Shown piece by piece: positions 4,643 to 48,310 of a stretch of DNA of 64,000 bases. Within the stretch, counting starts at the first letter, position 1, and each line of letters opens with the position of its first letter. Source of the DNA: Candidatus Levyibacteriota bacterium (GTDB taxonomy: Bacteria > Patescibacteriota > Microgenomatia > Levybacterales > UBA12049); assembly GCA_963790825.1 (NCBI GenBank), contig CAWBPM010000003.1, positions 189,681 through 253,680 on the forward strand, in the 5' to 3' direction. The notes beneath the pieces are model-generated. The model was not told the origin of the DNA. It did no database searches and was given only the letters and a program-made list of their open reading frames with translations. Position numbers and translations under genes: made by a program.

Positions 4643-5149
4643 CTATTGCATTATCCAACCGAGAAAATGAATTGAATCATAATAGCTTGTGTTATTATTT
4701 TTTATATTGAGTTTTTTACTCGTATTATGTCCGACGAGATACTCAGCGCTATAATCTCTACTATACCAGAAAAATGGGAAAAATCCATCATTTTGATTTC
4801 CACTTTCTAATGTATATCCATCGGGAGATTCAGCCGATGAATCAAGCGTAAGATTTTCTGCATTATCAAGAGTAACTGGCGTGCTTTCATTTGTCACAGC
4901 ATTATGAATATAAAGCTGCGGGTTCGATACATTATTCGGATAATAAGCATATTGAGGATTTACCGTAACGTGATTATTACTAACCGAATAGACTTGACTT
5001 GGGTAATAATCACCACCAATGCTATAGAGGAAGTTATATTTCGGTTGAAGAAAAAGTCCCGGGATATAAATACTGATTGCAACGAATAAGATCATCACGA
5101 TCGGTATTGCAAAACCAAGAATAAGAGGAAGATTCTTTTTCGAAATCAT
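4643..5149 (-). CDS. Membrane-anchored hypothetical protein
   Basis: Single N-terminal TM helix (LILGFAIPIVMILFVAISIYI). No recognisable domain. Confidence 0.4.
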   Translation of the reverse strand: MISKKNLPLILGFAIPIVMILFVAISIYIPGLFLQPKYNFLYSIGGDYYPSQVYSVSNNHVTVNPQYAYYPNNVSNPQLYIHNAVTNESTPVTLDNAENLTLDSSAESPDGYTLESGNQNDGFFPFFWYSRDYSAEYLVGHNTSKKLNIKNNNTSYYDSIHFLGWIMQ

Positions 5150-5291
5150 ACAATGAACGATAAACTCATCCTTAGTATTCCACGAAGCGGTTTTATTGTC
5201 AACATTAGGCTGTAGCCTGCAGTAACTATAAAGATCTAGATAAGAGAATTATTGACTTTGGTTAATACAAGAATCTGATTGGGATAGTGGT

Positions 5292-5355
5292 ATTTTTTAT
5301 CCTTCGACTTTGCTTAGGACTGCGCTAAGTTTAATTTGGAAAATGACAGCGCTTG
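5292..5355 (-). repeat. 64-bp copy of the secA 3' end (last 8 codons KRCHFPN* plus 39 nt of 3' flank); direct repeat of 18326-18389
   Basis: 60 of 64 nt identical to 18326-18389. The reverse complement reads aag cgc tgt cat ttt cca aat taa. An in-frame TAG lies just upstream, so it is only a gene-end remnant. Confidence 0.85.
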
Positions 5356-5414
5356 AAATGCTAGTCAGGTAGGGTACCTCACGTTAATTGGTTGAATTTG
5401 TTATGAACTGGTAT

Positions 5415-6071
5415 TTAATAGTGCTCTTCCAGATTAATGATGGCCAACTCTTTTAAATACTTTTCAGTTTTTTGTTTTTTTACCCATGTTTGCAAATAGT
5501 TTTTATCAAGATTTTTTTCTTGAATTTGATAAACAAAGGCTGCATCGATGAGATGTTTTTCAATTTTTGAGTCTTTATACCACAAAAGTTTAATAAGAAT
5601 TGTATCCTCTGCACTAGCAAAAGTCATTGACTGACCGAAAACATTGATGTTTTTTCTTCTTTTAAATCGGGATATATCAAATTCACTATGTGTCAACAAC
5701 CAAAAATCCAGCTTCAGCATTGTTGGAAGATGCAAGACATTAAATTGGAATTTATTATTAACAGCATCTTCGATCATTGACGTATCAACCATAAATTCAC
5801 TAAGAGGTAGAGATAAAAATGTTTGCTTTATACGTTCAATATCCTTTTTTTCTGCTTCAATGATAAAATCAATATCGTGTGAGGCTCGTGGTCTTCCATA
5901 AAAGATTACACTTAGGGAACCTGTAACCATATAGGGAATTTTTGCACCCTGTAAAAGCGAGGTAATATCTTTAAGCAGTTGCTCTTGTCCAAGATCTTTT
6001 CTGTGTCTTGCCATATTTTTTACCTTCTTCGCGAAGTTTTTTGACAAAGCAATTAAGACGGAAAGCCACAC
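5415..6071 (-). CDS. Pol-beta superfamily nucleotidyltransferase (minimal NTase fold)
   Basis: GSLSVIFYGRPRASHDIDFII matches the GS...hD[IL]D nucleotidyltransferase signature. The true start may be the internal MARHRK (about 6014). Confidence 0.55.
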   Translation of the reverse strand: MWLSVLIALSKNFAKKVKNMARHRKDLGQEQLLKDITSLLQGAKIPYMVTGSLSVIFYGRPRASHDIDFIIEAEKKDIERIKQTFLSLPLSEFMVDTSMIEDAVNNKFQFNVLHLPTMLKLDFWLLTHSEFDISRFKRRKNINVFGQSMTFASAEDTILIKLLWYKDSKIEKHLIDAAFVYQIQEKNLDKNYLQTWVKKQKTEKYLKELAIINLEEHY

Positions 6072-6234: not shown

Positions 6235-7029
6235 TTATGCTTTCTTTGCAACCAAAACGATTCTATGTCTTGGCAAATTTATTCCTTTTTCCGTTTGAAA
6301 CTTTTCTACATATTCTTCTAAGTATTTTCTATCTTTTTCCGAATCATAATCTTCGAAGATAGGAACTCCTTGCAAAAAAGTATCTAAATCTTTGTAAGAA
6401 AGATAATATTCGTTGTAATGAAAATCTTGGGCATAAACAATCTTAAAGCCTGCTTTTTTAGTATCCTCAACATCTCTATCTAAAACTGAATTATCCCATT
6501 TTCCGTAATTTTGCCCTCTTCCGAAAATAACCTTAATGTCTTTTGTATCTTTTTCTCCTATATCTATAGATAAAAAATATCCTCCGGGTTTTAGCATTTT
6601 ATAGAATAACTGATAAATGAGAACAGCTCTTCTTGCATAAATAATGTCAAAATAATTTTTAGGATAGTTTAATTCACGCGTATTTTTTTCAATAAACTCG
6701 ACATTTTTTATCCCTTTTTCTTTTTGAAGTTTTCTTGCTGCATTTAACATTAATCTTGAGGTATCATTGCCAATTACTTTTTTAAAATGTGGCGCAATTT
6801 CAAGAGTAAATCTTCCGTCTCCACACCCAGCATCCAAAACAACTTTTTCTTTCCAGCTTAGCCCTGCCAGTTTTTCTTTAAAAATTTCTTCGGGTGCACC
6901 TGATCGAAACTCCTGAATATATTGTGCAGGATTGGAATAATTTCCAAACTTTTTTGCTACTTTATCATAAAAATCTTGTGCCATATGAGAAATTATAGCA
7001 CTTTTAGCTTTTAAGAGGCTTAATCCCAA
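6235..7029 (-). CDS. Class I SAM-dependent methyltransferase (paralog of 27051-27800)
   Basis: VLDAGCGDGRFT motif I. About 65% identical to the product of 27051-27800 over its full length. Confidence 0.7.
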   Translation of the reverse strand: MGLSLLKAKSAIISHMAQDFYDKVAKKFGNYSNPAQYIQEFRSGAPEEIFKEKLAGLSWKEKVVLDAGCGDGRFTLEIAPHFKKVIGNDTSRLMLNAARKLQKEKGIKNVEFIEKNTRELNYPKNYFDIIYARRAVLIYQLFYKMLKPGGYFLSIDIGEKDTKDIKVIFGRGQNYGKWDNSVLDRDVEDTKKAGFKIVYAQDFHYNEYYLSYKDLDTFLQGVPIFEDYDSEKDRKYLEEYVEKFQTEKGINLPRHRIVLVAKKA

Positions 7030-7148
7030 TTGCGTAAATTCCGTTTTTCTTTATTCCATCCGCATATTCTGTATGAGAATTATCATATCATGTTACAAAT
7101 AATATTATCTAACCTATAGTTTACTTTTGGCCATTTCTGTGGTACAAT

Positions 7149-8954
7149 TTGCACAAGCTTATGCCAATCGAAAGAGAATACATAAAAACTAGTTTAGACC
7201 TACAATCAGCACCCGATAATATTGCTGTATTCACTGGCTGGCCTTACGCAAATGGACCAAGACATTTGGGGCACGGTGCAGCATTGCTAATGGGAGATGT
7301 ATTATCAAGATATTATAGAGCGAGAGGCTCAAATGTTTTAATGGTGAGTGGTACCGATGAGTACGGAACACCGAATCAAATCGCTGCAGAAAAAAGAGGC
7401 GTAAGTACACAAACTTATGTTGATGAAATGAGTCAGGTAATTAGAAATGATTTTAAAGAATTGGGAATGAGCTTTGATCATTTTAGTAGAACTACATCTA
7501 AGGAACATCAAAAAGTAGCTAGATCATTTTTCGTAGACTTACTTGAAAAAGGTTATATAACCGAGGGAGAAATGAAAACGGCATATGATTCTTTAACCAA
7601 TAGATCTTTACCCGATAGATATGTAGAAGGAATATGCCCACACTGTAAATATTCTGAGGCTAGGGGAGATCAATGTGATTCATGCGGAAATCTATTAGAT
7701 TCATTTGAATTAATAAACCCAAAATCAAAATTAACCAACAATCAAGTGCTTTTTAAAGATTCGCCTCAGTTATTTTTAAGGCTAGATTTACTTGGAGATC
7801 AGATAAAAAAATGGGTTATGGGTCAAAAAGATTGGAGAGCAAACGCAAAAAATCAAGCCTTAGGTATGGTAGATGATCTTAAAGCCAGATCTATTTCTAG
7901 AGATTTAGATTGGGGCATTCCAATTCCCGATGATGTTTTAAATGGAAAATATAGCGATAAAGTATTATATGTTTGGTTCGAGGCTGTTATAGGATATCTT
8001 TCTGCTTCAATGGAATGGGCAAAAGCAAAAGGAAACCCAGAGGAATGGAAAGATTGGTGGAAAAATCCACAAGCGAAACATTTCTATGCGATAGGAAAAG
8101 ATAATATCCCATTTCACACAGTAGTATGGCCTGGAATGTTAATGGGGCATAATGAAGGGTCTGAATCCCCTCTTCATCTACCTGATCAAATCGTGAGTGC
8201 TGAATATTTAACCTACGGGTCAGAAAAATTTAGCAGTAGTAGAGAGAATACATTGTTCATTAAAGATGCGCTTAAGTTATTAGATCCTGATGTACTTAGG
8301 TATTATTTAGTATCCGCTGGACCTGAAACAAAAGATGCGGAATTTAGCTTAGAAGAACTAGTTCGCAGAAACAATGAGGAATTAGTTTCTACATGGGGTA
8401 ATTTAGTAAATAGGGTTTTAACTTTTTCTTATAAGCATTTTGGTTCTGTCCCTACGCCTGATAGTATTCTTCCCCCTGAAGATCAACAGCTCCTTCAAGA
8501 ATTATGGAAAGGTTTTGAAACAACCGGATCTTTAATCAAACAGACTAAATTTAAGGCTGGGTTATCCAGTTTTATGGTAATGGCAAAAAATGTTAATAGA
8601 TTCTTAAATGAAAAAAAACCTTGGGAAAGTATAAAAACTAATCGATCGGATGCAGCTACTACAATGTTTACAGCTTTAAATGCAGTAGATATTCTTGCAT
8701 CAATTGCTTCTCCATTTTTGCCATTTAGTAGCGATAAAATTTTGAGTTATTTAGGATATGATAATGGGATAAAAGGAGAAATCATCGAAGATCAAATAGA
8801 CATTGAGGGAAATATAATTGATGTTTTAAAAGGAAATTATAATCTATCAAAAGGATTTTGGACTCCAAGTAGATTAACTCCGGGTCAAAAATTAAGAGAG
8901 CCAAAAATACTTTTTCAAATATTAGATGTTAATCAACTTAAGCAATCAATTTAA
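7149..8954 (+). CDS. metG: Methionyl-tRNA synthetase, paralog 1 (KMSKS motif reads KFSSS)
   Basis: PYANGPRHLGHG (HIGH motif), zinc knuckle CPHCKYSEARGDQCDSCG, LPDRYVEG, YVWFEAVIGYLSAS. The KMSKS position reads EKFSSSR. A TGGTACAAT extended -10 box lies 12 nt upstream. Confidence 0.85.
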   Translation: MHKLMPIEREYIKTSLDLQSAPDNIAVFTGWPYANGPRHLGHGAALLMGDVLSRYYRARGSNVLMVSGTDEYGTPNQIAAEKRGVSTQTYVDEMSQVIRNDFKELGMSFDHFSRTTSKEHQKVARSFFVDLLEKGYITEGEMKTAYDSLTNRSLPDRYVEGICPHCKYSEARGDQCDSCGNLLDSFELINPKSKLTNNQVLFKDSPQLFLRLDLLGDQIKKWVMGQKDWRANAKNQALGMVDDLKARSISRDLDWGIPIPDDVLNGKYSDKVLYVWFEAVIGYLSASMEWAKAKGNPEEWKDWWKNPQAKHFYAIGKDNIPFHTVVWPGMLMGHNEGSESPLHLPDQIVSAEYLTYGSEKFSSSRENTLFIKDALKLLDPDVLRYYLVSAGPETKDAEFSLEELVRRNNEELVSTWGNLVNRVLTFSYKHFGSVPTPDSILPPEDQQLLQELWKGFETTGSLIKQTKFKAGLSSFMVMAKNVNRFLNEKKPWESIKTNRSDAATTMFTALNAVDILASIASPFLPFSSDKILSYLGYDNGIKGEIIEDQIDIEGNIIDVLKGNYNLSKGFWTPSRLTPGQKLREPKILFQILDVNQLKQSI

Positions 8955-9049
8955 ATAAGTTTCATGATTATATCGCGAAAGTTAAGAATATATAAAAAAT
9001 CTTTCAATGCATATTTATTGCATGTCATAAGTATCTAGAAATATAAAAT

Positions 9050-10069
9050 ATGAAAATAATTGATTATTCCCAAAACTTTAACGCAATAATTAATAAAAAC
9101 AAGATCAAAAAAGCTTTAGAAATAAGCTGTCAACAATTATTTAGTTATCCTCATAAAGATAAAAAAGAATTAACTAAAGTAATAGCAAAAAGTTTAAAAT
9201 TGCCTGAGAAGTCAATCACAATAGGAAATGGAGCAACAGAAATTATATTTACACTCCCACGGTTTTTTGATAACAAAAATATATTAATTTTATCACCAAG
9301 TTTTTGGGAATATAGTGCCGCAAATATGATAGATAAAAATAACAATATCGACTTTCATATTTTGAAAGAGGCTGATAATTTCCAATTAAACTTTACTGAA
9401 TTTGAAAGCAAAATAAAAAATTTTTCAACAATATATCTATGTAATCCGAATAATCCTACTTCTACCCTGATTGACAAAACAAAGCTTTTACATATAATCA
9501 AAAAAAAGACTAAATCTATTTTTATTGTCGACGAAACATATCTAATTTTTCGCGAAGACTTTAAAGAACATTCACTTATTAAAGAAGCTATTTCTCTAAA
9601 TAATCTCTATATAGTTATATCATTTTCTAAGTTTTTTTCTATACCAGGCTTAAGAATTGGGATATTAATATCTAAACCAAAAAATATAGAAAAATTTAAT
9701 AAAATTACGATCCCTTATTTGATAAACCCTATGGCAGAAATAATAATTCCTTATTTATTAAAACAAAAGCGGTTTATTGAAAAAACCAAAAAATTTTATT
9801 CAAAACAAAGAGTTAAGGCTTATAAACTTTTTTTAAATAACTTTAACGGAAAATTAAAAATCTTTAAGCCAGAGGCTAACTTTATACTGGTTAAAATATT
9901 AACCCAAAAAACAAGTCAAGAAGTAGTTGCTAAGCTAAAAAAGAATGGAATAATCCTAAGAGATGGTTCAAGATTTAAAAATCTTGGTTACAAATGGCTT
10001 AGAATCGCAATTCGAACAGACGAGGAAATGTTAATTCTTATTAAAAATTTGAAAAGAATAATTGAATAA
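9050..10069 (+). CDS. Class I/II (HisC/CobD-like) PLP-dependent aminotransferase/decarboxylase-fold enzyme
   Basis: NPNNPTS motif and SFSKFFSIPGLRIGI (PLP-lysine motif). The 339-aa size fits the CobD/HisC subfamily. Very AT-rich coding sequence. Confidence 0.6.
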   Translation: MKIIDYSQNFNAIINKNKIKKALEISCQQLFSYPHKDKKELTKVIAKSLKLPEKSITIGNGATEIIFTLPRFFDNKNILILSPSFWEYSAANMIDKNNNIDFHILKEADNFQLNFTEFESKIKNFSTIYLCNPNNPTSTLIDKTKLLHIIKKKTKSIFIVDETYLIFREDFKEHSLIKEAISLNNLYIVISFSKFFSIPGLRIGILISKPKNIEKFNKITIPYLINPMAEIIIPYLLKQKRFIEKTKKFYSKQRVKAYKLFLNNFNGKLKIFKPEANFILVKILTQKTSQEVVAKLKKNGIILRDGSRFKNLGYKWLRIAIRTDEEMLILIKNLKRIIE

Positions 10070-10080
10070 TTCTTCTATTT

Positions 10081-11085
10081 ATGAATGAAAAAGAAACCCT
10101 AAAAAACATAATTTTAATCAATGATAATTCTTTAATTGATAGTCATACTCATTGTGGTTTTGGTCATTACAACCTAATACAACAAAGATATCCGACCAGT
10201 CAAAGTGTAATAGACTTAGAATCAAAAACCGAATTGGCTGGCATTGATTTTGTTATTTCGTTCCCTTTTCCTGGAGAATTATATTATTTCGATATATTTG
10301 CAAATTCTGAAAGTGATTTGCCACAACATCCTCCAATTGAAAAATTTCCATATCATTTTGCAAATAGACAATTGTTATATGAGATTTCATTATTTGGCAA
10401 TAACAGAATTATACCATTCGCAAATATATATCCAAATCACGAAGAGGGGCAACAAGCTGATTATCTCGATGAATTAGCAAAACAAGGATTAATTTTTGGT
10501 CTTAAATTGCATACTCTAGCTACTCAGTATTCCGCTGAAGCTCTTGCCAAATCTCCATTTTTGGACGTTTCTCGTGCTCATTCGCTTCCGGTTATAATTC
10601 ATTCAGGTCCAGATGATATTTCTCATCCCATGAATGTTGTTGAATTAGCTGAAACAAATCCAGATATTCGATTTTGCATTGCACATATTGCTCGGTTTGA
10701 AAAACAAGTTTTTGATTACATTAGAAATAATAATTTACAAAATGTATTTATAGATACCGCCCCCTTGCTTTCCTTATGTAAACTTACACAACTTGATATA
10801 AATAATGGAATTGGCGGTGAAAAACTAAATTTACCGTATGATTCTCCTCAGCAAACTTTAGTAGAACTTTGTAAACTTATGCCTGGACATATTGTATGGG
10901 GAACAGACGAACCCTGGACGACTATTACAGACGACAAACAAAAGCAAATACTTATGAAGGCAAGATATGGAGACGAAGTAGCTATACTTAGATCTATTCC
11001 GCCTAAATTAACAAAAGAGATTGCACATGATAATCCAATTAAATTACTCTTCAGTAATTATGTACCATCTGAAATTCAATTATGA
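10081..11085 (+). CDS. Amidohydrolase-2 family (TIM-barrel metal-dependent hydrolase/decarboxylase)
   Basis: N-terminal IDSHTHCGFG (D-x-H-x-H metal ligands), internal HSG and CIAHIA histidines, about 330 aa. Confidence 0.5.
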   Translation: MNEKETLKNIILINDNSLIDSHTHCGFGHYNLIQQRYPTSQSVIDLESKTELAGIDFVISFPFPGELYYFDIFANSESDLPQHPPIEKFPYHFANRQLLYEISLFGNNRIIPFANIYPNHEEGQQADYLDELAKQGLIFGLKLHTLATQYSAEALAKSPFLDVSRAHSLPVIIHSGPDDISHPMNVVELAETNPDIRFCIAHIARFEKQVFDYIRNNNLQNVFIDTAPLLSLCKLTQLDINNGIGGEKLNLPYDSPQQTLVELCKLMPGHIVWGTDEPWTTITDDKQKQILMKARYGDEVAILRSIPPKLTKEIAHDNPIKLLFSNYVPSEIQL

Positions 11086-12548
11086 TATTAACTAAAAAAA
11101 ATAGAAAACAAGCGGAATTATTTTTTAATGACGTAATTAAATTAGGTTTGGATTTCAAATTACAAAATTCGGTTACCCCAAAATACTTAACAGAAAAAAA
11201 TGGGAAAAAATTAATAAAAAAACTTCCAATTAAGGGAAAATCTGAAAAAGAGATTTTAGAAGAATTTAAAAAAGAGATTTTACCCTATTGCACAAATTTT
11301 AGTAGTAATAATTTTATGGGTTTTCCAGATTCAGGCAATTCAGTTGCTGCAATTGGAGCTTCGTTTTTATATAACCTCTTGCAACAAAATCTAATTAATC
11401 AAAGTTTTTGTGGACCTTCTGCAACTTTTATAGAAATTTCCGTAATTAGATGGTTAAGAGAAACTGTAGGTTATAAAAATGGTTCTATATCAGACATTTG
11501 GGATGTAGGTGGAATAATAACTCCTGGTGGAACAGCTAGTAACGCTATTGGGGCACTTCTTGCTAGAGAAAATAGATTTCCCAATGCAATGGAAAATGGA
11601 ATATCAGACCTTGATAGATGCTGGATGATTGTTCCTAAGGGAATTGGTCATTATAGTATAAAAAGTGGTCAAATGTGGGTGGGTTGTGGAAACAAGTTAA
11701 TTGAAGTAGAAACAAATAATTTTAGATACGACCTGAATGATCTTAAAGCCAAGCTGGAGAAGAACCGAGGAAAAATTATGGGTCTTGTGGCATATGCTGG
11801 AGACAGTAGAACGATGACTGTTGACAATTTTCAAGCAATTGCAAAATTAGTTAAATCAATTGATCCAACCATATGGCTACATGCAGACGCTTGTCATGGT
11901 TTCAGTTTAGGTTTTAGTAAAAATCTAAAATATAAACTAAAAGGAATCGAAAAATTTGACAGCATAACCATGGATCCTCACAAAGTATTAGCTACACCAT
12001 ATGCCATTAGTGCTCTATTGGTAAAAGATCCTCATAAACTAAAAACAATTACTAGTTTGTCAGATTTAATTATGCAAGAAAAATTTGCTTTTGGGCAAAT
12101 TACCCCCTTCTTAGGTAGTAGATCCTGGGAATCTCTTAAACTGTGGTTTTTTATGAAAAACTTGGGTAAAGAAGGTTTAGATGATCTTATCCAAAAAAGA
12201 CATGAGTTAGCAATATATTTATCTGACAGATTAAAGATTGATTCAGACTTTATTGTTTTAAATGAAGTTGAGATTAATTCAGTTGTATTTATGTATAAAG
12301 GAAAAATAAAATTAAATGAAATAGATAAATTAAATTTAATAAATAAAAAGATACATGAACTTATAATAAAAGAGGGAAAGTATCATTTACACCAATTTAG
12401 TATTCCAGACTCCGGAAGAATAAAAAGCGGAGAGATAATCTACCCACAAAGATATATGTGTGGAAATCCAAACACAACAAAAAAAGATATACTTGAAATG
12501 GTCGAATATGTAAGAAAATTAGGTAAAAAAAATGAAAAATTACTATGA
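11082..12548 (+). CDS. Group II pyridoxal-dependent decarboxylase (GAD/CSAD/DABA-decarboxylase type)
   Basis: SITMDPHKVLATPYAISALLVKD matches the S-x-x-x-N/DPHK...ALLV[KR]D signature of GAD/CSAD-type decarboxylases. HADACHGF present. Overlaps the upstream gene by 4 nt, which suggests an operon. Confidence 0.7.
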   Translation: MILTKKNRKQAELFFNDVIKLGLDFKLQNSVTPKYLTEKNGKKLIKKLPIKGKSEKEILEEFKKEILPYCTNFSSNNFMGFPDSGNSVAAIGASFLYNLLQQNLINQSFCGPSATFIEISVIRWLRETVGYKNGSISDIWDVGGIITPGGTASNAIGALLARENRFPNAMENGISDLDRCWMIVPKGIGHYSIKSGQMWVGCGNKLIEVETNNFRYDLNDLKAKLEKNRGKIMGLVAYAGDSRTMTVDNFQAIAKLVKSIDPTIWLHADACHGFSLGFSKNLKYKLKGIEKFDSITMDPHKVLATPYAISALLVKDPHKLKTITSLSDLIMQEKFAFGQITPFLGSRSWESLKLWFFMKNLGKEGLDDLIQKRHELAIYLSDRLKIDSDFIVLNEVEINSVVFMYKGKIKLNEIDKLNLINKKIHELIIKEGKYHLHQFSIPDSGRIKSGEIIYPQRYMCGNPNTTKKDILEMVEYVRKLGKKNEKLL

Positions 12549-13207
12549 AAATTTCCCTGAAGAAAATAATTTTTGATTTTGAACCATATTTTAAAGAATA
12601 CTTTAGAAACAGAAAATATTTTGTATGTTTGTATGGTTCACATTTAACCAACAAAGCAAATGTACATTCTGACATAGATATCTTTATTGCACTACCTAAA
12701 TACACAAAGACTGATTTAAAAATTATTAAAAAATTTATTATTAATTATCATATTAAAAACAAATTAGAACTTGACAACGAAGTTCCATACGCAAATAAAT
12801 TACTAATTACCTATTCAGATTTGGATAAAGCTGTAAAGTTAGGTGGATTAAGTATTGAAAACGGGAAGTTAATTGTTCCTCCTATAATAAAAACTAAAAA
12901 ATTTTTGTCTTCCAAAAAAGTTAAATTAAGACTTGCATTTAACGCTTTAACTTCACCGCACAAATTTTTTGGTACAGATTTAGATCAATACTTTAAAATG
13001 AAAGAATTTGCAGAAAGTAATTTATTTTATCTATCCAAAACGTTTACAATCAAAAAAAAATTATCAATTAATAATTTAGTAGAAACTTTAATTAAAGGGG
13101 CGGATGGTGAAACTGGAGAGTTATATTTAGGTTATAAATCACACCCATTAGTATTAAAATATTTAAATAATATTATTAAAATCGAAAATCAAAGATCGGT
13201 TAAATAA
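12545..13207 (+). CDS. Pol-beta superfamily nucleotidyltransferase (small-molecule NTase-like)
   Basis: YGSHLTNKANVHSDIDIFIALP matches the GS-x(n)-hD[IL]D NTase motif. 4-nt overlap with the upstream gene. Confidence 0.55.
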   Translation: MKISLKKIIFDFEPYFKEYFRNRKYFVCLYGSHLTNKANVHSDIDIFIALPKYTKTDLKIIKKFIINYHIKNKLELDNEVPYANKLLITYSDLDKAVKLGGLSIENGKLIVPPIIKTKKFLSSKKVKLRLAFNALTSPHKFFGTDLDQYFKMKEFAESNLFYLSKTFTIKKKLSINNLVETLIKGADGETGELYLGYKSHPLVLKYLNNIIKIENQRSVK

Positions 13208-13351
13208 ATCATGATTCAAAATAAAATCGAGACATAAAATTATTTTAGGAAAATTATATTTACTGATTTAGTTTTATTAATTGAATATTTCTTATAACCC
13301 CTATTCTGGATTTATATAATATTTAATACTATAATATATTAACGAAGCTAA

Positions 13352-15043
13352 ATGAGTATAAATAAAACAGCTAATAAAGAAAAAAGATTTATAGGGGTTG
13401 CCTGGCCTTACGTTAATGGCGACTTACATATAGGACATCTGGCAGGTTATCTACTTCCAGCAGATATTTTTGCGAGATATTCACGATCAGCGGGCTATGA
13501 TGTTTTAATGGTATCGGGATCTGACTGCTTCGGAACACCTATAACCATAGAGGCAGATAAACAAGGTGAGTCACCGAAAAATATTGTTAAAAAATATCAT
13601 TCCAAAGATGTGTATTTATTTAAGAGAATCCTACATCTTTCTTATGATATATATACAAAAACAAATACCCAAAATCACATCAGTGTTGTACAAGATATGT
13701 TTCTTAAACTTTTAGAAAATGGTTTGATTTCTATTAATACTACGAAACAATATTACTCCCCCATTGATAAAAAGTTCTTACCCGATCGATATGTAGAAGG
13801 AGAATGTAAAAATTGTGGATTCTTAGAAGCGCGTAGCGATCAATGTGATAATTGCGGAAAAGTTCTCGATACGGGAGATATTAAGAATCCAATAAGTAAG
13901 TTAACTGGTGCAAATGTTGAATTAAGAGATACTCAACATTATTTTATAAATTGGCCAAAATTAGAAAAGAATATTGAAGAATATGTTAATAAAAATGGAC
14001 AGCAATGGAAGAAATGGGTCTTCGCTGAAACTCTCGGATGGCTAAAGCAGGGCTTAAAACCCAGAGCAATTACTAGGGATTTAGATTGGGGCGTTCCTTT
14101 ACCCATAAAAAGGATGCCAAAAAATTTAATAATAAATAATATTGAAAATAAACGTTTATATGTTTGGTTTGATGCAGTAATAGGATATTTATCCGCTTCT
14201 ATTCTATGGTCAAAAGAAACTGGCAAAAATTGGGAAATATTTTGGAAAGATAATTCTACTCGTCATTATTACTTTATGGGTAAAGACAACCTTATATTTC
14301 ACACTATTTTTTGGCCTGGGCAACTAATGGGTTACGATAAAAATCTTAAATTACCTGACATCGTAAGTATAAACATGTTTTTAAACTTAGATGGTAATCA
14401 ATTTTCAAAAAGTCGTGGCGTAACAATTTCAATTGAAGAAATTGTTAGAAAATTTGGTAACGACTCTGTTAGATTTTACTTAACACTTATCATGCCAGAA
14501 ATCAAAGATTCTAGCTTTAATTGGAATGATTTTTATAAACAAAATGATGATATATTGGTTGGAAATTTAGGTAATTTTATACATCGTGTTTTGTCAATTT
14601 CATTTAATTCTGGGACCAAGCAGCTTGTTAAAACAGAAATCAATTCAAAAATTAAATCAAATATTACAAACGCATTTAATAAATCCCATGAATATTTAAA
14701 CAATTGTGAATTTAAAAAATATTTAAATTCTATATTAGATTTATCAACAGTTGGAAACCAATACCTAAATGATATTAAATTATGGGAAATAAGAAAATCT
14801 AACAAATTAAAGTTTGACCAAGAACTTGTTCAATTATTTTCTATTATTATATCCATTGGGTATTTGATCTCTCCTTTAATGCCGGAAAGTTCTGATAAAA
14901 TTTTCAAAATGATTGGATTAGAAACTAATATGCCTTGGCCCAACCATAATTATGAAATTGATAATATAAGAGATTTATTATCTAAAGTAAAAATTAATAA
15001 GAAACCAATAATATTATTCTCAAAAATAACAACTAAATATTAA
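13352..15043 (+). CDS. metG: Methionyl-tRNA synthetase, paralog 2 (KMSKS motif reads QFSKS), embedded in the AT-rich operon
   Basis: WPYVNGDLHIGH, zinc knuckle CKNCGFLEARSDQCDNCG, LPDRYVEG, YVWFDAVIGYLSAS, QFSKSRG. About 40% identical to paralog 1 by eye. Confidence 0.85.
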   Translation: MSINKTANKEKRFIGVAWPYVNGDLHIGHLAGYLLPADIFARYSRSAGYDVLMVSGSDCFGTPITIEADKQGESPKNIVKKYHSKDVYLFKRILHLSYDIYTKTNTQNHISVVQDMFLKLLENGLISINTTKQYYSPIDKKFLPDRYVEGECKNCGFLEARSDQCDNCGKVLDTGDIKNPISKLTGANVELRDTQHYFINWPKLEKNIEEYVNKNGQQWKKWVFAETLGWLKQGLKPRAITRDLDWGVPLPIKRMPKNLIINNIENKRLYVWFDAVIGYLSASILWSKETGKNWEIFWKDNSTRHYYFMGKDNLIFHTIFWPGQLMGYDKNLKLPDIVSINMFLNLDGNQFSKSRGVTISIEEIVRKFGNDSVRFYLTLIMPEIKDSSFNWNDFYKQNDDILVGNLGNFIHRVLSISFNSGTKQLVKTEINSKIKSNITNAFNKSHEYLNNCEFKKYLNSILDLSTVGNQYLNDIKLWEIRKSNKLKFDQELVQLFSIIISIGYLISPLMPESSDKIFKMIGLETNMPWPNHNYEIDNIRDLLSKVKINKKPIILFSKITTKY

Positions 15044-16037
15044 AGACTTTTACTGCCTCTTCTTCAGAGAGTGGATAAAAACAAAAAACCTTTCTATCGT
15101 TTTTAGAATAATCCAACAAATTTAGAATCTTTCCATTCCCATTAACCAAAACTAATCTTGAGTTATTTGAATCTGCTATGAGATATTTACTACCAGCTAT
15201 CTCAATAGCATCTTGAACCCAATTAAAATTATTTTTAATCTCCTTAATTATTTTGAATTTTTCTGTTAAAACTAACACTCTATTATTTAAAGTATCACTT
15301 ACAATATATCCTAAATTTGAATATCTTATATTGTGTGGACATTTTAATCCGCTTAATTTAGTATTCCATTTTTTTGTATTCTTATCTATCTCTATTACAC
15401 TCCCCTGATGAAATAAAGTTGCTAATATTTTATTATCACCAATTTCTAAGCAACTATTTATGTGTGTTACATGCTCTGGCGTAGCCGTTACTACTTTAGT
15501 ATAGTCACAATTTTTATCTATAACTCTTCTATTTCCTTGTGGATTTAATGCAAAACCATTCTCTGTTGCAAGCCAATCCCAAACAAAATTACTAAAATTA
15601 GAATTATTAAATTCAAGTATACTATCCGTACCTGTTGAAACAACAAATAAGTTGCCATTTTTACTTTTTGATAACCCATGTAAATCATTAAACATTTTGT
15701 TTGTGTATTGTTCTTGGACTATTCCATTCGTTATAAACTTTATAGTTTTGCCGCTTGCACAAAAAAGACCACCACGCTCAGTGTCATATTCTAGACCAGT
15801 TGCCCATGGTAATGGAATTTCGGATATAAAGCCTTTATCTAATCTTGTTGCATCTATTAAGCAAACAGCACCACCTAGTTGCGTATCTTCAGTTTTAATA
15901 GTGGTTGATTTTGATCGACCGAGGAATTTTTTATGCTCTGCATCTCTTTGTTTCCATTGTTGCCTAAGTATTTTAAGACCTTTAGGATCTGTTGCTAAAA
16001 AACTAACAGCAAATAACTCTTTTTTTATCTTTTTCAT
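15033..16037 (-). CDS. NHL-repeat / six-bladed beta-propeller-like protein
   Basis: Repeated hydrophobic-[DN]-x-x-N-x-R-[VL] blocks (IVSDTLNNRVLVL, LIADSNNSRLVLVN). Convergent with metG2, overlapping it by 11 nt. Confidence 0.35.
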   Translation of the reverse strand: MKKIKKELFAVSFLATDPKGLKILRQQWKQRDAEHKKFLGRSKSTTIKTEDTQLGGAVCLIDATRLDKGFISEIPLPWATGLEYDTERGGLFCASGKTIKFITNGIVQEQYTNKMFNDLHGLSKSKNGNLFVVSTGTDSILEFNNSNFSNFVWDWLATENGFALNPQGNRRVIDKNCDYTKVVTATPEHVTHINSCLEIGDNKILATLFHQGSVIEIDKNTKKWNTKLSGLKCPHNIRYSNLGYIVSDTLNNRVLVLTEKFKIIKEIKNNFNWVQDAIEIAGSKYLIADSNNSRLVLVNGNGKILNLLDYSKNDRKVFCFYPLSEEEAVKVFNI

Positions 16038-16121
16038 AGTCTTATTTATATTAAAAATTTAATAATATAGCATATTTATAATTACAATCCTTATTTTGGT
16101 TTACTAATATATAAATATGTA

Positions 16122-16328
16122 TTACCTTTTTATACCCCAAGAAATTTTATTCCAACTCCTCTCATGAAAGTAATAGAATACTAATTTTATAAGTCCATCT
16201 AAACCACCTATGCTTAATGAAATTAAAAGTTTATGTGTAAAAAAGAAAACAATACTTGCAGTTATAAAGGAAGCAATAATTCTCCAGGTGATTGTTTTAA
16301 TTATACTTCTTAGACGATGTTCATTCAT
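16122..16328 (-). CDS. Small two-helix membrane protein (DUF2061-like)
   Basis: 68 aa, with TWRIIASFITASIVFFF and a second hydrophobic helix. Immediately downstream of the sat/cysC fusion. Confidence 0.35.
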   Translation of the reverse strand: MNEHRLRSIIKTITWRIIASFITASIVFFFTHKLLISLSIGGLDGLIKLVFYYFHERSWNKISWGIKR

Positions 16329-16354
16329 ATGTAATATAATTTACAAAATTAAAA

Positions 16355-18013
16355 CTAATTCTTAATATATTTATTTTTTTGTAAAAAATTAATTATTTCA
16401 TTTACACAGGAGGATACACTTCTATTTGCAGTATTTATATTTAATTCTGAATTTTCAGGCACCTCATAATTATCATCTTTGCCTGTAAGCCCTTTAAGCT
16501 TACCAATGCTTTGCATTTTATATAAACCTTTTTCATCTCTTTTAATACATATATTTAAGGGTGTAGATACATATATCTCAACATAGTTTCCGTTTTTTTC
16601 TATCATGAACCTATTTTTTAATCTAGCTTCATTATACGGAGCTATAGCGGCACAAATAGTTATTCCTCCATGTCTTGTTACCTCATTAGCTACAAATCCA
16701 ATACGAGCAATATTTGTATCTCTATCCTCCTTGCTAAACCCTAAGCCTTTAGATAGATTTTGCCTTACGATATCTCCATCAAGTAATGTAATATTTTTTG
16801 TTTGCATTTCAAGCAGTTTAAAATATAACATTCTGGCTAGAGTAGACTTACCTGAAGACGGTAAACCTGTAAAAAAAATGGTTAATCCTTCTTTTTTCTG
16901 ACGATTAATATTATTTTTTATTTCTTTAATTACTTCCGGAAAAGAAAACCAAGACGGAATAGTCTCATTTTCTATAATCATTTTTCTAAATTGAGTACCT
17001 GAAATACTTTTAACAGTTTGATTTTTTTTTACCTCATTAATTGGCAAATAATCATTTATTTCCTCAACATAAACCATCTCATTAAAAAAAATCGGAACTA
17101 TGCCAATTTCATCTTTATATTTTTCAACAAGTTTCTGGGCCTCATAAGGATCGTAATAGGGTTTGCCATTCTTATCGCTTCCAGGACTTGCGTGATCTCT
17201 CCCAACTATAAAATGCGTACATCCATAGTTCTTTCTGATTATTGCATGGAGAATTGCTTCTCGTGGTCCGGCCATTCTCATTGCAAGAGGAAGAAGACTC
17301 AAATATCCAAAATCATTAATATATTTGTTATATAAGTAAATATAACATTTTGTTCTGGTAATATAATCTATGTCACCCTCTTTAGTCTCACCTACAGAAG
17401 GGTGCAATAGTATCTTTGCATGTTGTTCATTGGCCGCTCTTTTTATCATTGCAAAATGAGCCTTATGAAGAGGGTTTCTGGTTTGAAATCCTATTATTCT
17501 TTTCCATCCGAGTTTTTTAAATATTGTTTTTAATTCTTTAGGAGAATGTCTAAACTCAGAAAAATCAGATCTTTCTATATCGTGAATTTTTATTATTTTA
17601 CCTCCAACATAATATTTTCCGGTATTGAAAAATAATTGATTAACCCCAGAGTGATTTTTATCAGTAGTTCCATAAACTTTATTTGCTTCCAATATTTTAT
17701 TTGGTTCATAAATTGATTCGATAATTAAAAAGGCGATTGGTTTTCCAAATTCATCACAAAGTATAATTTTTTGTCCTACTGAGTATTTATTTTTATCATC
17801 AATATCTAAAACAATAGGAATTGGCCAGATACTTCCATTGCTTAAATGCATATTATTAACCACGCTTTCATAATCCATTTTATTTAGAAAACCTTGTAAT
17901 GGAGAAAACCCACCATTCACAATAAGTTCCAGGTCACATATTTGTCTTGTATTCAAAGTCAATCTTAATAGATCTGACTTTGATTTATTCCGAGAAGAGG
18001 AATTATTAATCAT
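16355..18013 (-). CDS. sat/cysC: Bifunctional sulfate adenylyltransferase (ATP sulfurylase) / adenylylsulfate kinase (PAPS synthase)
   Basis: N-terminal PUA-like region plus QTRNPLHKAH and HFIVGRDHAS (ATP-sulfurylase motifs). C-terminal GLPSSGKSTLA P-loop and LLDGDIVRQ (APS-kinase motifs). Confidence 0.85.
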   Translation of the reverse strand: MINNSSSRNKSKSDLLRLTLNTRQICDLELIVNGGFSPLQGFLNKMDYESVVNNMHLSNGSIWPIPIVLDIDDKNKYSVGQKIILCDEFGKPIAFLIIESIYEPNKILEANKVYGTTDKNHSGVNQLFFNTGKYYVGGKIIKIHDIERSDFSEFRHSPKELKTIFKKLGWKRIIGFQTRNPLHKAHFAMIKRAANEQHAKILLHPSVGETKEGDIDYITRTKCYIYLYNKYINDFGYLSLLPLAMRMAGPREAILHAIIRKNYGCTHFIVGRDHASPGSDKNGKPYYDPYEAQKLVEKYKDEIGIVPIFFNEMVYVEEINDYLPINEVKKNQTVKSISGTQFRKMIIENETIPSWFSFPEVIKEIKNNINRQKKEGLTIFFTGLPSSGKSTLARMLYFKLLEMQTKNITLLDGDIVRQNLSKGLGFSKEDRDTNIARIGFVANEVTRHGGITICAAIAPYNEARLKNRFMIEKNGNYVEIYVSTPLNICIKRDEKGLYKMQSIGKLKGLTGKDDNYEVPENSELNINTANRSVSSCVNEIINFLQKNKYIKN

Positions 18014-27014: not shown

Positions 27015-27050
27015 CTTCCTGGACGTTAAACTTTTTGCTATACTTTGGAT

Positions 27051-48274: not shown

Positions 48275-48295
48275 ATGCGTCTTATTTTCCATTCG

Positions 48296-48304
48296 TGCTA
48301 TAAT
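48296..48304 (+). promoter_or_regulatory. Extended -10 box TGCTATAAT 6 nt upstream of the alaS ATG (leaderless-type promoter)
   Basis: cgTGCTATAATtacctcATG. The same TGCTATA[AC]T-N6-ATG arrangement occurs at 38602-38610 (minus strand) and 27036-27044. Confidence 0.55.
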
Positions 48305-48310
48305 TACCTC

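Follow-up and report, generated by a model that had tools for sequence, protein, structure and literature searches.

The stretch of DNA analysed here (64,000 nucleotides, hereafter the window) contains an AT-rich island of ~12 kb (6235–18013) in a streamlined, presumably Patescibacteria-like genome. We interpret this island as a mobile element around a conserved four-protein module composed of a group II decarboxylase, a nucleotidyltransferase (NTase), a HisC/CobD-like enzyme and a methionyl-tRNA synthetase (MetRS), an assignment that is well supported (probability about 0.85). Gene content, synteny, gene fusions, composition and the covariation of group-specific residues with the type of synthetase were all observed directly. 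An amidohydrolase, a propeller protein, methyltransferases and assorted phosphoesterases are optional accessories. No published description of the module was found in the literature.

Layout and composition of the island

An earlier note on this DNA had placed five plus-strand and three minus-strand genes between 9050 and 18013. Open reading frames occur at precisely these coordinates, including the two 4-nt overlaps between plus-strand genes (11082–11085 and 12545–12548), and profile HMMs uphold the gene calls at family level. Together with two further genes on the left, the features are:

6235–7029, minus strand: SAM-dependent methyltransferase, 264 aa (Methyltransf_31/25/11; GC3 0.21)
7149–8954, plus strand: MetRS1, 601 aa (TIGR00398, 488 bits, cut-off 336; GC3 0.23)
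9050–10069, plus strand: HisC/CobD-family PLP enzyme, 339 aa (PF00155, Aminotran_1_2, E 7e-37)
10081–11085, plus strand: amidohydrolase-superfamily metal hydrolase 'AH2', 334 aa (PF04909, Amidohydro_2, 39 bits, cut-off 26)
11082–12548, plus strand: group II PLP amino-acid decarboxylase, 488 aa (PF00282, Pyridoxal_deC, E 3e-45)
12545–13207, plus strand: Pol-beta-superfamily NTase, 220 aa (PF01909, 31 bits, cut-off 21)
13352–15043, plus strand: MetRS2, 563 aa (TIGR00398, 459 bits, cut-off 336)
15033–16037, minus strand: putative NHL-type beta-propeller protein, 334 aa (weak NHL matches)
16122–16328, minus strand: DUF2061 small membrane protein, 68 aa (precomputed Pfam on the identical gene of locus L001)
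16355–18013, minus strand: bifunctional ATP sulfurylase/APS kinase (PAPS synthase), 552 aa (NF004040, 756 bits, cut-off 669)

The low GC content previously claimed for this region is borne out: GC is 0.25–0.32 in the island (1-kb windows) against about 0.40 elsewhere, and GC3 is 0.18–0.26 for nine island genes versus 0.335 ± 0.054 for the remaining 34 ORFs (Mann–Whitney p = 2.7e-5). The AT-rich tract therefore stands, but its left edge does not lie at 9050, as low GC3 extends through MetRS1 and the SAM methyltransferase to 6235. The latter, a possible left-hand member of the island, has a 68% paralogue at 27045–27800 adjoining an IS; SAM methyltransferases also occur in the module elsewhere (L002, L028 and L030, where L numbers denote loci), and 'MTase X' is present in nine loci. 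The genes flanking the island encode SecA, SerRS, RsmB, MurJ, GroEL, LepA, RpoB/C, AlaRS, FtsK and RNase J. Transposases adjoin the block, the distribution of which is sporadic and island-like.

The proposed tie between the minus-strand unit and the block holds in part, because homologues of the propeller protein occur inside the block in other loci (L016/17, 54%; L023, 45%; L038, 32%), whereas the PAPS synthase is found with the block in this window alone. The family call for the propeller stands weakly (NHL repeat E 6e-4; NHL-domain PDB matches E 0.003–0.07), and we regard the protein as a putative recurrent accessory member; its stop and the end of MetRS2 overlap by 11 nt. The DUF2061 gene was seen in none of the other module loci. 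With its PUA_2, ATP-sulfurylase and APS_kinase domains and a GC3 of 0.20, the PAPS synthase is compositionally part of the island and may also be linked to it functionally; among the other module loci, a related gene was seen once, as an APS-kinase-like domain (L023, 28% identity).

Recurrence, synthetase partners and fusions

The block was found again in unrelated contigs, rearranged in order and orientation, with a MetRS in or beside the decarboxylase–NTase pair in 17 of the 18 low-GC loci with a visible flank; the commonest gene order is MetRS–decarboxylase–NTase–HisC-like, and the rough expectation for such adjacency by chance is below 1e-30. This synteny supports the earlier suggestion of a horizontally mobile, functionally coupled small-molecule module. 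Genes for GNAT, NUDIX, AP-type phosphodiesterase, His-phosphatase, 2H phosphoesterase, HAD and DHH proteins repeatedly adjoin it. The NTase forms 411 clusters at 50% identity, compared with thousands of MetRS clusters at 90% identity, which indicates that the module is confined to a small minority of Patescibacteria.

The two synthetases of the window are 35% identical to each other. MetRS1 (motifs HLGH and KFSSS) is without the C-terminal dimerisation domain and has an orthologue, 72–73% identical, beside the same enzyme block in L024. MetRS2 (motifs HIGH and QFSKS) is of an ordinary Patescibacteria type, with more than 120 database clusters at 51–70% identity, named Patescibacteria, Shapirobacteria, Roizmanbacteria and WWE3; in seven loci (L002, L003, L007, L016, L018, L028 and L032) an orthologue adjoins the block or is fused to it, and a 60% relative (L062) has ordinary housekeeping neighbors, GluRS among them, and no module. 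The MetRS partners of the module belong to at least five clades that are mutually 24–43% identical, all with HIGH and KMSKS motifs. Even the three closest blocks (window, L024 and L030; decarboxylases mutually 76–84% identical) carry different MetRS types, so that the element retained appears to be a MetRS and not one MetRS lineage; two of these three (window and L024) carry two MetRS genes. In L041–44 the module MetRS has a housekeeping setting (SerRS, FtsQ, MetRS ... DHH, HolB), and in several lineages it may be the sole copy.

The NTase is the hub of the module. It consists of a catalytic domain (G31-S32...D43-x-D45...D77/E79) and a helical domain, is of the Tam41/ANT-like type within the Pol-beta superfamily, and is fused to MetRS (L002, 796 aa; L018, 767 aa; P0165; P0180), to the HisC-like enzyme (six representatives: P0183, P0224, P0268, P0270, P0297 and P0301), to the decarboxylase (four representatives, P0212, P0251, P0281 and P0282, plus L040) and, in high-GC contigs, to ArgRS (L053). 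In fold searches, DrrA and GlnE, which are protein AMPylators, score nearly on par with ANTs.

The decarboxylase (PLP lysine K301 in DPHK) is 58–84% identical among low-GC module loci, its clades mostly co-diverging with those of MetRS, and its closest PDB entries are DABA-DC, CSAD and GADL1. Group-specific positions follow the synthetase, being F73/S87/C110 in MetRS-linked proteins versus E73/D87/D110 in ArgRS-linked relatives. These positions align with the substrate loop of DOPA decarboxylase and presumably belong to the substrate region. The specificity of the enzyme would match the amino acid charged by the partner synthetase; the predicted substrate here is methionine itself or a derivative with that side chain intact. 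The HisC/CobD-like enzyme (PLP lysine K194 in SFSK; closest PDB entries 3ftb, 1lc5 (CobD) and 6oux) belongs to a family that characteristically binds phosphate-ester substrates, and is absent from the ArgRS version of the module.

AH2 is an accessory of the module and a hallmark of synthetase-linked clusters. Its family is rare (37 relatives among 5.8e9 proteins), with invariant D20, H22, H24, K142, H144, H174, H202 and D276, and its AF2 model (pLDDT 91) matches LigW, ACMSD, DHOase and SsoPox in Foldseek at TM about 0.55. Members are operonic with synthetases of at least five specificities (MetRS, W/Y-RS, HisRS, class I LysRS and a D/K/N-type class II synthetase) and with SAM synthetase, and elsewhere adjoin an S51 peptidase and a YcaO/nitroreductase RiPP-like set.

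A possible methionine-derived nucleotide conjugate

The explanation we favor, tentatively and at somewhat less than even odds, is that the module builds a nucleotidylated amine-type conjugate from the cognate amino acid, and that this product targets the corresponding synthetase as an aminoacyl-adenylate-like antimetabolite. The chemistry at each step, the target and the role in immunity are inferred as follows. The decarboxylase and the HisC/CobD-like enzyme would start from methionine, or from a keto or phospho precursor of it, and yield an amine or aminoalkyl(-phosphate), which the NTase would couple to a nucleotide via a hydroxyl or phosphate, like Tam41 and ANT enzymes. The product would bind MetRS as an adenylate-like antimetabolite, and the adjacent MetRS genes (two here) may provide tolerance or titration. 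The amidohydrolase and, elsewhere, the GNAT, S51 peptidase, NUDIX, 2H, HAD and DHH enzymes could process or detoxify the conjugate, with the PAPS synthase contributing an optional sulfation step.

This explanation draws on the 17/18 synteny with MetRS, the diversity of MetRS clades, the NTase fusions and the residues that follow synthetase type, and further on the phosphate-ester binding typical of the HisC/CobD family, the aaRS links of AH2, the recurrent accessory genes from GNAT to DHH, and the sporadic distribution with transposases nearby. S51 peptidases are described as conferring resistance to the aminoacyl-nucleotide antibiotic microcin C (PMC9239234), and in tiarin clusters one biosynthetic family occurs with different aaRS genes plus GNAT immunity (10.64898/2025.12.02.691738). 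The AH2 family likewise lies beside varied aaRS genes; unlike in tiarin clusters, where a second aaRS copy is always present elsewhere in the genome, the module MetRS may be the only copy in several lineages. The general direction of the earlier proposal of a sulfated or sulfamoylated aminoacyl-nucleotide antimetabolite stands, given the fusion of the NTase to MetRS, decarboxylase and HisC-like enzyme, with PAPS as sulfur donor and MetRS2 as self-immunity copy no more than possibilities.

Several observations speak against a conjugate. MetRS2 is ordinary and has a 60% relative without the module, in several lineages the module MetRS has a housekeeping neighborhood and may lack a second copy, and AMPylators lie near ANTs in the NTase fold searches. 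Vertical inheritance beside a housekeeping gene would produce the same co-divergence of decarboxylase and MetRS. Decarboxylated methionine offers neither hydroxyl nor phosphate to a Pol-beta NTase, nor does it obviously mimic an adenylate; the scheme therefore lacks at least one step. The search for a precursor peptide, a dedicated exporter or a known warhead-forming enzyme (MccB-like, sulfamoyl set) found none, and the PAPS synthase is particular to this window.

Alternative readings

The same observations could mean that the module serves the cell's own MetRS or ArgRS as an accessory or regulator and is not a weapon, which we consider unlikely but credible. It might control cognate amino-acid flux through charging by the aaRS, breakdown by the decarboxylase and aminotransferase-dependent formation from the keto acid; the NTase would be a GlnE-like AMPylating regulator of its fusion partners; or the product might be an amine–nucleotide cofactor or tRNA-modification donor needed for decoding. 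The MetRS partners are indeed canonical and match the type of the host lineage, the neighborhoods in L041–44 and L016 are housekeeping ones, decarboxylase and MetRS co-diverge, the top structural matches of the NTase include GlnE and DrrA, and the enzymes to which it is fused are precisely the three that use up or make the amino acid, among which the HisC-family transaminase, absent from the Arg version, could make methionine from its keto acid. However, a housekeeping function fits poorly with the rarity of the module among Patescibacteria, its island-like setting here, the two adjoining MetRS genes in the window and L024, and the lack of tRNA genes adjacent to the module, and it accounts neither for the many aaRS links of AH2 nor for the presence of GNAT, S51 and phosphoesterase enzymes as accessories.

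Envelope decoration by way of an amino-alcohol or amine head group, activated in a Kennedy-like manner, is similarly unlikely. Here CobD-like and group II decarboxylases would yield (phospho)amino-alcohols or amines, tailored by a kinase and methyltransferases; the Tam41-like NTase would form an NDP-activated intermediate, glycosyltransferases or sulfotransferases (with PAPS) would decorate a glycan or lipid of the cell surface, and the synthetase would either donate an aminoacyl group or simply share the regulation of the other genes. Such a pathway would accommodate the CobD model as best NCBIfam match of the HisC-like enzyme, the APH/choline-kinase-like kinase, GT4, NAD-epimerase and sulfotransferase genes that flank the block in L003/L025, L024 and L061, the recurrent SAM methyltransferases and the PAPS synthase. 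It explains neither the NTase::MetRS and NTase::ArgRS fusions nor the decarboxylase residues that track the amino acid of the synthetase; glycan genes are present in few versions, the commonest form being merely MetRS–decarboxylase–NTase–HisC-like, and a head-group transferase resembling LicD or EptA was not found.

A strict ascamycin-type pathway, in which PAPS would provide a 5'-O-sulfamoyl group on adenosine and MetRS would add methionine or immunity to give Met-sulfamoyl-adenosine, is improbable. Sulfate activation, a sulfotransferase, sulfatases and two AlaRS-like genes do occur together in the ascamycin cluster (PMC4257720), and a bona fide PAPS synthase lies in the island; in other loci, a sulfotransferase adjoins the block (L003/L025), sulfatases adjoin the amidohydrolase and a class II aaRS (L004–6), and an APS-kinase-like gene is present (L023). 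Yet the window encodes no sulfotransferase of the L003 type, the Pfam-scanned genes of island and flanks include no sulfatase or amidinotransferase, and at least 15 other module loci are wholly devoid of sulfur genes. That chemistry also gives decarboxylases no role, and the ascamycin and nucleocidin papers make no mention of any amidohydrolase.

The sulfonate route raised in the earlier note, PAPS-dependent sulfonation followed by CSAD-type decarboxylation to taurine or a relative, is not supported and very improbable. CSAD and GADL1 are among the PDB relatives of the decarboxylase (E 4e-29 and 1e-27) and the PAPS synthase is adjacent, but DABA-DC-type matches equal CSAD in quality, the decarboxylase pairs with MetRS in 17/18 loci and elsewhere does so without a PAPS synthase, no cysteate- or sulfolactate-forming enzyme was found, and F73/S87/C110 turn acidic, not basic, in ArgRS-linked relatives.

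That these are ordinary histidine or cobalamin genes, or unrelated hitch-hikers beside metG, can practically be dismissed: among named families the first gene (9050–10069) matches HisC and CobD best, and adjacency is cheap in gene-dense Patescibacteria genomes, but the protein scores under both equivalog cut-offs (CobD 205 bits, cut-off 290; HisC 184 bits, cut-off 276) and his and cob genes are otherwise absent, the set turns up again in varied order and orientation with five MetRS clades, the adjacency far exceeds chance, and the gene fusions already contradict it.

Composition and extent of the island

The five plus-strand reading frames of the earlier note and those of the minus-strand unit facing them were all recovered at the same coordinates, including two genuine 4-nt overlaps (10081-11085 with 11082-12548, and 11082-12548 with 12545-13207); the stop of the convergent minus-strand gene overlaps the end of the second methionyl-tRNA synthetase gene by 11 nt. 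Profile searches agreed with that note on the family of each gene that it named, apart from the beta-propeller call, for which weak NHL-repeat matches were the sole basis.

Genes of the AT-rich island
6235-7029, SAM methyltransferase
7149-8954, methionyl-tRNA synthetase (MetRS1)
9050-10069, plus strand, HisC/CobD-like enzyme of the class I/II aminotransferase fold
10081-11085, plus strand, amidohydrolase (Amidohydro_2)
11082-12548, plus strand, group II PLP decarboxylase
12545-13207, plus strand, Pol-beta nucleotidyltransferase (NTase)
13352-15043, plus strand, methionyl-tRNA synthetase (MetRS2)
15033-16037, minus strand, putative beta-propeller protein
minus strand, same unit, small protein (DUF2061)
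minus strand, same unit, PAPS synthase, by score a genuine bifunctional fusion of ATP sulfurylase and APS kinase (NF004040, 756 bits; cut-off 669)

The atypical composition noted earlier also holds, with a GC content of 0.25-0.32 in the island versus ~0.40, and a GC3 of 0.18-0.26 in nine genes versus 0.335 +/- 0.054 in the other open reading frames of the window (p = 2.7e-5). The low-GC3 tract reaches leftwards across MetRS1 and the SAM methyltransferase; the island therefore probably extends from 6235 to 18013, with both MetRS genes (35% identical products) inside it. Core genes flank it, encoding SecA, SerRS, RsmB, MurJ, GroEL, LepA, RpoB, a split RpoC, a short AlaRS, FtsK and RNase J; this gene content, with the split rpoC, the short AlaRS and RNase J in particular, suggests a host that is probably Patescibacteria-like.

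Several features of the surrounding sequence deserve mention. At the left edge of the island, a minus-strand gene of intermediate GC3 (5415-6071; 0.29) encodes a second nucleotidyltransferase-like protein of 218 aa with weak matches to AbiEii and aminoglycoside-2''-adenylyltransferase. Two IS-type transposase genes (25975-27003 and 47235-48263; rve integrase core, 342 aa) are 100% identical, and behind the first lies a methyltransferase gene of low GC3 (27045-27800) whose product is 68% identical to that of 6235-7029; this IS copy and methyltransferase may be mobile DNA related to the island. Downstream of rpoB (43579-46998), rpoC consists of two overlapping reading frames (39794-42052 and 41952-43586; 544 aa and 752 aa), either because the beta-prime subunit is truly made in two parts or because of a frameshift. 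The AlaRS (48260-50161, 633 aa) matches NF002436 (~595 positions) best and almost end to end, so it is a short form without the C-terminal part of the standard ~870-aa enzyme.

No tRNA genes were found in the window or beside the related blocks described below, and a dedicated tRNA following a pyrrolysine-like logic was rejected on this ground. A search for riboswitch or T-box leaders with Rfam at E <= 1 returned one chance-level match and otherwise nothing, and a promoter and terminator scan, uninformative in AT-rich DNA, gave no more sites than shuffled sequence.

Recurrence of the module and its synthetases

Related loci were fetched via the amidohydrolase and via the NTase, and the window proteins were then mapped onto them. 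The related loci were read over ~20 kb each; two MetRS genes were seen in the window and, over that span, in one related locus, L024. In high-GC loci, reading frames were placed by tblastn rather than gene prediction. The synteny search suggested in the earlier note showed that the block recurs: decarboxylase, NTase and HisC-like enzyme, which together with a MetRS we refer to as the module, occur jointly, in varying gene order and orientation, in many low-GC contigs whose labels read Patescibacteria, Shapirobacteria or Microgenomates. The commonest form is a co-directional MetRS-decarboxylase-NTase-HisC-like operon (L026, L027, L029, L030, L035, L038, L040, L041-44) that lacks the amidohydrolase, propeller and sulfur genes. 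Of the 18 low-GC loci with a visible flank, 17 have a MetRS gene within the block or next to it (chance probability < 1e-30 by a rough binomial estimate), and in L031 a DDE transposase stands in its place.

The MetRS partners form at least five clades, 24-43% identical to one another and all carrying HIGH and KMSKS motifs. Decarboxylase clades mostly co-diverge with them; the exception is the three most similar blocks, whose decarboxylases are 76-84% identical and yet whose synthetases differ.

MetRS types in the three closest blocks
Window: B and A
L024: E and B
L030: E

As far as these clades indicate, the module retains some MetRS and not one given MetRS lineage. With two MetRS genes in the window, a second synthetase of the same specificity is present besides either copy, and likewise in L024. 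Both window enzymes class as canonical methionyl-tRNA synthetases by score, motifs and anticodon-binding domain (TIGR00398 488 bits for MetRS1 and 459 bits for MetRS2 versus 336; motifs HLGH/KFSSS and HIGH/QFSKS; Anticodon_3 in both). MetRS1 has a module-linked orthologue in L024. MetRS2 is of the ordinary Patescibacteria type: > 120 clusters share 51-70% identity with it, many of them from contigs 0.7-1.1 Mb long, and a 60% identical relative sits beside GluRS at a locus without the module (L062). A dedicated resistant clade, as might be expected from the self-immunity role proposed for MetRS2 in the earlier note, is therefore not supported; the enzyme grades smoothly into ordinary Patescibacteria MetRS.

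The association extends to gene fusions. An exhaustive profile search delimited the NTase family to 411 representative clusters; among the best 150 of these, Pfam identified 2 NTase::MetRS, 6 Aminotran_1_2 and 4 Pyridoxal_deC fusions. In L002 (796 aa), L018/19 (767 aa), L028 and L032, the NTase precedes MetRS in a single fused protein. High-GC soil contigs (GC 0.63-0.69) carry an operon of decarboxylase, SAM methyltransferase and NTase, the last fused or adjacent to ArgRS, with no HisC-like gene (L053 3190-5424, NTase::ArgRS of 745 aa; also L046, L052 and L056). The fusions of the NTase with MetRS, HisC-like enzyme, decarboxylase and ArgRS thus point to functional coupling. At the level of sequence and gene content, the comparison shows the four module proteins to be one functional unit, in which the amino acid predicted to be handled follows the synthetase.

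An alignment of 15 MetRS-linked and 5 ArgRS-linked decarboxylases contains 12 positions that are fixed differently between the two groups. Three of these, F73/S87/C110 in the Met group versus E73/D87/D110 in the Arg group, lie in an N-terminal segment that we take to align with the substrate loop of DOPA decarboxylase. The change from F/S/C to E/D/D is the one that would be expected on going from a thioether to a guanidinium substrate side chain; synthetase specificity thus appears to match, indirectly, a putative product determinant, namely the group-specific residues of the decarboxylase. The enzyme has a group II fold with the PLP lysine in place (DPHK) and matches CSAD no better than DABA-DC; the residues that track MetRS and ArgRS, as aligned, argue against an acidic substrate.

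The HisC/CobD-like enzyme belongs to PF00155 and retains its PLP lysine (SFSK), but scores below the equivalog cut-offs for both CobD (TIGR01140, 205 bits versus 290) and HisC (TIGR01141, 184 bits versus 276), and no cob or his genes are present among the island neighbours. A histidine or cobalamin pathway was rejected on these grounds.

For the NTase, residues G31-S32, D43, D45, D77 and E79 are conserved across 50 diverse members, and the predicted model (pLDDT 88) comprises a catalytic and a helical domain; the hG[GS]...[DE]x[DE]...[DE] motif and the two-domain fold of the small-molecule Pol-beta type (ANT/Lnu/Tam41) are both present. A sequence search of the PDB gave no usable match. The best structural match is Tam41, with MNT antitoxins, AAD(9), DrrA, GlnE, KNTase and LinB ranked lower, and Foldseek with the model placed AAD(9) and ANT first, weakly. 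On these structural matches, the predicted NTase looks like an enzyme of the kind that transfers a nucleotidyl group to a small molecule at a phosphate or hydroxyl; the model also leaves room for a role as a protein AMPylator.

Some module loci lie in housekeeping neighbourhoods, and serine recombinases, transposases and one prophage-like context were found around the NTase and amidohydrolase networks. Genes for GNAT, NUDIX, His-phosphatase, AP-type phosphodiesterase, 2H phosphoesterase, HAD and DHH proteins recur near both the module and the amidohydrolase. A trio of genes also recurs beside MetRS, with or without the module (L003/L025, L024, L061); it encodes a kinase of APH/choline-kinase-like type, a GT4 glycosyltransferase and a protein of ~530-554 aa that lacks annotation and in L061 matches Pyridoxal_deC weakly. 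Low-GC contigs with Patescibacteria-like content (L002, L004, L005, L009, L011, L012, L014) are labelled 'uncultured Gammaproteobacteria bacterium', and taxonomic labels of such MAG contigs may be unreliable.

The amidohydrolase and its own network

The amidohydrolase has only 37 relatives among 5.8 billion proteins. Invariant residues comprise an HxH pair (H22, H24), K142, H174, H202 and D276, and the model (pLDDT 91) is a metal-dependent TIM barrel, (beta/alpha)8, with the HxH...H...H...D ligands in place. Its structural neighbours are LigW, ACMSD, dihydroorotase and SsoPox, from which no specific function follows, and it was assigned to no characterised subfamily; neither sequence nor profile gave a usable match to PDB sequences. 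The relatives are operonic with synthetases, often with overlapping stop and start codons, and a synthetase lies at most two genes away in 7 of the 9 context types (~1e-6 by chance).

Gene contexts of amidohydrolase relatives
MetRS
Tyr/Trp-type synthetase (L013, L023)
two HisRS-like genes and an aromatic/histidine ammonia-lyase (L022)
class I LysRS, LuxC-type reductase and SDR (contig of database protein P0026)
class II Asp/Asn/Lys-type synthetase and two sulfatases (L004-6)
archaeal-type SAM synthetase, S51 peptidase, AlaRS-like protein, carbamoyltransferase and radical-SAM enzymes (L008-14)

L023 combines NTase, amidohydrolase and propeller with genes for a Tyr/Trp-type synthetase, an AMP-binding protein, an aldehyde dehydrogenase and an aldo-keto reductase. 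Upstream of its amidohydrolase lie two synthetase fragments of the same type (5132-5981; 69 and 182 aa), which look like a decayed duplicate beside the intact 409-aa copy downstream (7347-8576). In L020 (6297-10987), an amidohydrolase relative (48%) directly follows a 65-aa reading frame and genes for YcaO, a nitroreductase-family protein and an M16 peptidase, in composition a trifolitoxin-like RiPP layout; an APH-type phosphotransferase lies upstream, and the contig also has type IV pilus genes. More distant relatives (33-37%; L008, L009, L010, L011, L012, L014) sit in a conserved set in which the AlaRS-like protein has ~395 aa, the carbamoyltransferase is of the NodU/TobZ type, and HAD or NUDIX genes accompany the SAM synthetase, S51 peptidase and radical-SAM enzymes. 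One amidohydrolase-bearing contig looks prophage-like; viral_contigs contained no relatives of the amidohydrolase or of the NTase.

Candidate products and the sulfur genes

The functional statements that follow are drawn from sequence, synteny and predicted structure. We favour, at a probability of roughly 0.4, a module product that would be an aminoacyl-adenylate-like antimetabolite made under self-protection, because of the parallels with tiarins and microcin C and because the window and L024 each have two MetRS genes. The decarboxylase would form an amine from methionine or a methionine derivative. The HisC/CobD family handles phosphate esters, and its member here could either form methionine out of the corresponding keto acid or produce an aminoalkyl phosphate. 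A nucleotide would be attached by the NTase to an intermediate that bears a hydroxyl or a phosphate, giving a product that acts at the MetRS active site. Plain decarboxylated methionine offers a Pol-beta NTase no handle, so at least one step is missing from this scheme. Against an antimetabolite stand the canonical MetRS partners, the housekeeping surroundings of some loci, and the fact that no exporter or precursor was found. Patescibacteria are generally regarded as almost devoid of specialised metabolism; here, a multi-enzyme module is conserved across many of their lineages, is also present in high-GC bacteria, and is wired to an essential translation enzyme via synteny, gene fusion and residue covariation. 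Adenylate-like inhibitors, if made, would form a family of natural products directed at aaRSs that is both new and programmable (for Met, Arg and perhaps others), and could be an episymbiont weapon or control device.

Judged by sequence features, the module appears to share some, but not all, hallmarks of clusters with a self-resistance (target-duplicate) aaRS. Tiarin (trifolitoxin-like) clusters encode an aaRS of varying specificity together with GNAT immunity, and the module is similarly one biosynthetic family with synthetases of different specificities (10.64898/2025.12.02.691738). In both, a product determinant covaries with the synthetase: the residue before the modified Gln in tiarins, the group-specific decarboxylase residues in the module. 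GNAT genes lie near some module versions, and the amidohydrolase relative of L020 adjoins tfx-like YcaO, nitroreductase and phosphotransferase genes. Tiarins, however, are RiPPs whose hallmarks are a precursor peptide and the TfxB/TfxC dehydrogenases (10.64898/2025.12.02.691738), and Pfam revealed no nitroreductase-type (TfxB/TfxC-like) or YcaO genes among the scanned island and flanking genes. Tiarin producers always have a second, housekeeping aaRS elsewhere, whereas for the module a second MetRS was seen in the window and L024 only; unlike in tiarins, the module synthetase often forms one protein with a pathway enzyme.

In microcin C biosynthesis, MccD and the PLP decarboxylase MccE install an aminopropyl group. 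In the module, too, a PLP decarboxylase would tailor a nucleotide-linked amino-acid moiety. Microcin C-type systems use the MccB adenylyltransferase, with immunity from MccE-GNAT, MccF and S51 peptidases, the last being microcin C resistance enzymes (PMC9239234). Common points are the aminoacyl-adenylate mimic aimed at an aaRS (proposed here), the fusion of a biosynthetic enzyme to an immunity function, and S51 and GNAT immunity genes. By contrast, the nucleotidyl donor enzyme of the window is a Pol-beta NTase rather than ThiF-like MccB, with no ThiF-family match among the island genes and no precursor peptide recognised; the decarboxylase is of group II (fold type I) and not of the Orn/DAP type; and module clusters contain an aaRS gene, which mcc clusters lack.

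It is possible, if doubtful, that the synthetase is instead a working, catalytic part of a new kind of pathway and not an immunity gene. An aaRS (MetRS, ArgRS, possibly Tyr/TrpRS) would then be physically coupled to a Pol-beta NTase and a decarboxylase of the cognate amino acid, and amino-acid-specific amine-nucleotide conjugates would be built on the synthetase scaffold, serving as a translation-linked signal, cofactor, tRNA-directed modification or a family of programmable adenylate mimics. A wider set of synthetase-centred clusters, so far undescribed, would exist in Patescibacteria, with the rare amidohydrolase family as its marker. A synthetase acting as catalytic partner would put canonical aaRSs to a new use outside translation. 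LysX is a LysRS-MprF fusion. A MetRS paralogue found with a cupin and a lysine N6-monooxygenase is a predicted peptide ligase (Aravind et al. 2010, PMC2922099), and the two are precedents for synthetases taken up into pathways outside translation and for an aaRS joined with a pathway enzyme in one protein. Unlike that paralogue, a dedicated divergent clade, the module MetRS is canonical and of several clades, and the partner enzymes differ entirely (PMC2922099). A full-text literature search found no description of the module gene combination or of NTase::aaRS fusions. Whether inhibitor or catalytic partner, clear and cheap experiments are possible with three soluble enzymes and defined candidate substrates.

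That the module is a housekeeping or regulatory accessory of the synthetase seems unlikely, even with canonical MetRS partners. An activation of Kennedy type, in which an amine head group is readied to decorate the envelope, is rather improbable. Its attraction lies in the Tam41 match of the NTase, in CobD being the best model for the first gene of the block, and in kinase and methyltransferase accessories that recall the route from ethanolamine to CDP-choline; CobD itself yields a phospho-amino-alcohol, to which a nucleotide is attached at a later stage of cobamide assembly. However, lipid and cobamide genes are absent, the CobD score is sub-cut-off, and we know of no aaRS involved in the Tam41, Kennedy or CobD pathways, let alone fused to them.

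Ascamycin and nucleocidin clusters for 5'-O-sulfamoyladenosines carry sulfate activation beside aaRS-like genes, aminoacyl-sulfamoyl-adenosine being a classic aaRS inhibitor, and the island resembles them in having ATP sulfurylase and APS kinase beside aaRS genes (PMC4257720, PMC10946740). A strict pathway of this type is nevertheless very unlikely, as its defining features are lacking: Pfam detected no sulfotransferase (AcmK/NucK), sulfatases (AcmG/I) or amidinotransferase (AcmN/NucN) among the island and flanking genes, and the radical-SAM genes of these clusters were not found in the window. Conversely, the acm gene table, in the extract available, has no decarboxylase, HisC-like enzyme, Pol-beta NTase or Amidohydro_2 (PMC4257720). 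By gene content and profile score, the module classes with none of microcin C, ascamycin-type, CobD-equivalog or HisC-equivalog systems. The taurine/sulfonate route of the earlier note can hardly be right, since it lacks its defining features and is contradicted by the MetRS synteny and the F/S/C versus E/D/D decarboxylase residues.

The link between sulfur and the module is weak but not nil. Among module loci, the PAPS synthase accompanies the block in this window only, and was rejected as a conserved partner. The earlier note had advised looking for a PAPS-dependent sulfotransferase; with the L003 sulfotransferase and the L004 sulfatase as tblastn queries, nothing was found in the 64-kb window. 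In other loci, a PAPS-type sulfotransferase adjoins the block (L003/L025), a cytidylyltransferase-like/APS-kinase-like gene is present (L023), a DHH/DHHA1 protein follows the block (L041), and sulfatases lie beside a distant amidohydrolase (L004-6). Homologues of the propeller, which in the window belongs to the PAPS unit, lie inside the module in L016/17 (54%), L023 (45%) and L038 (32%), and the plus- and minus-strand units are therefore connected.
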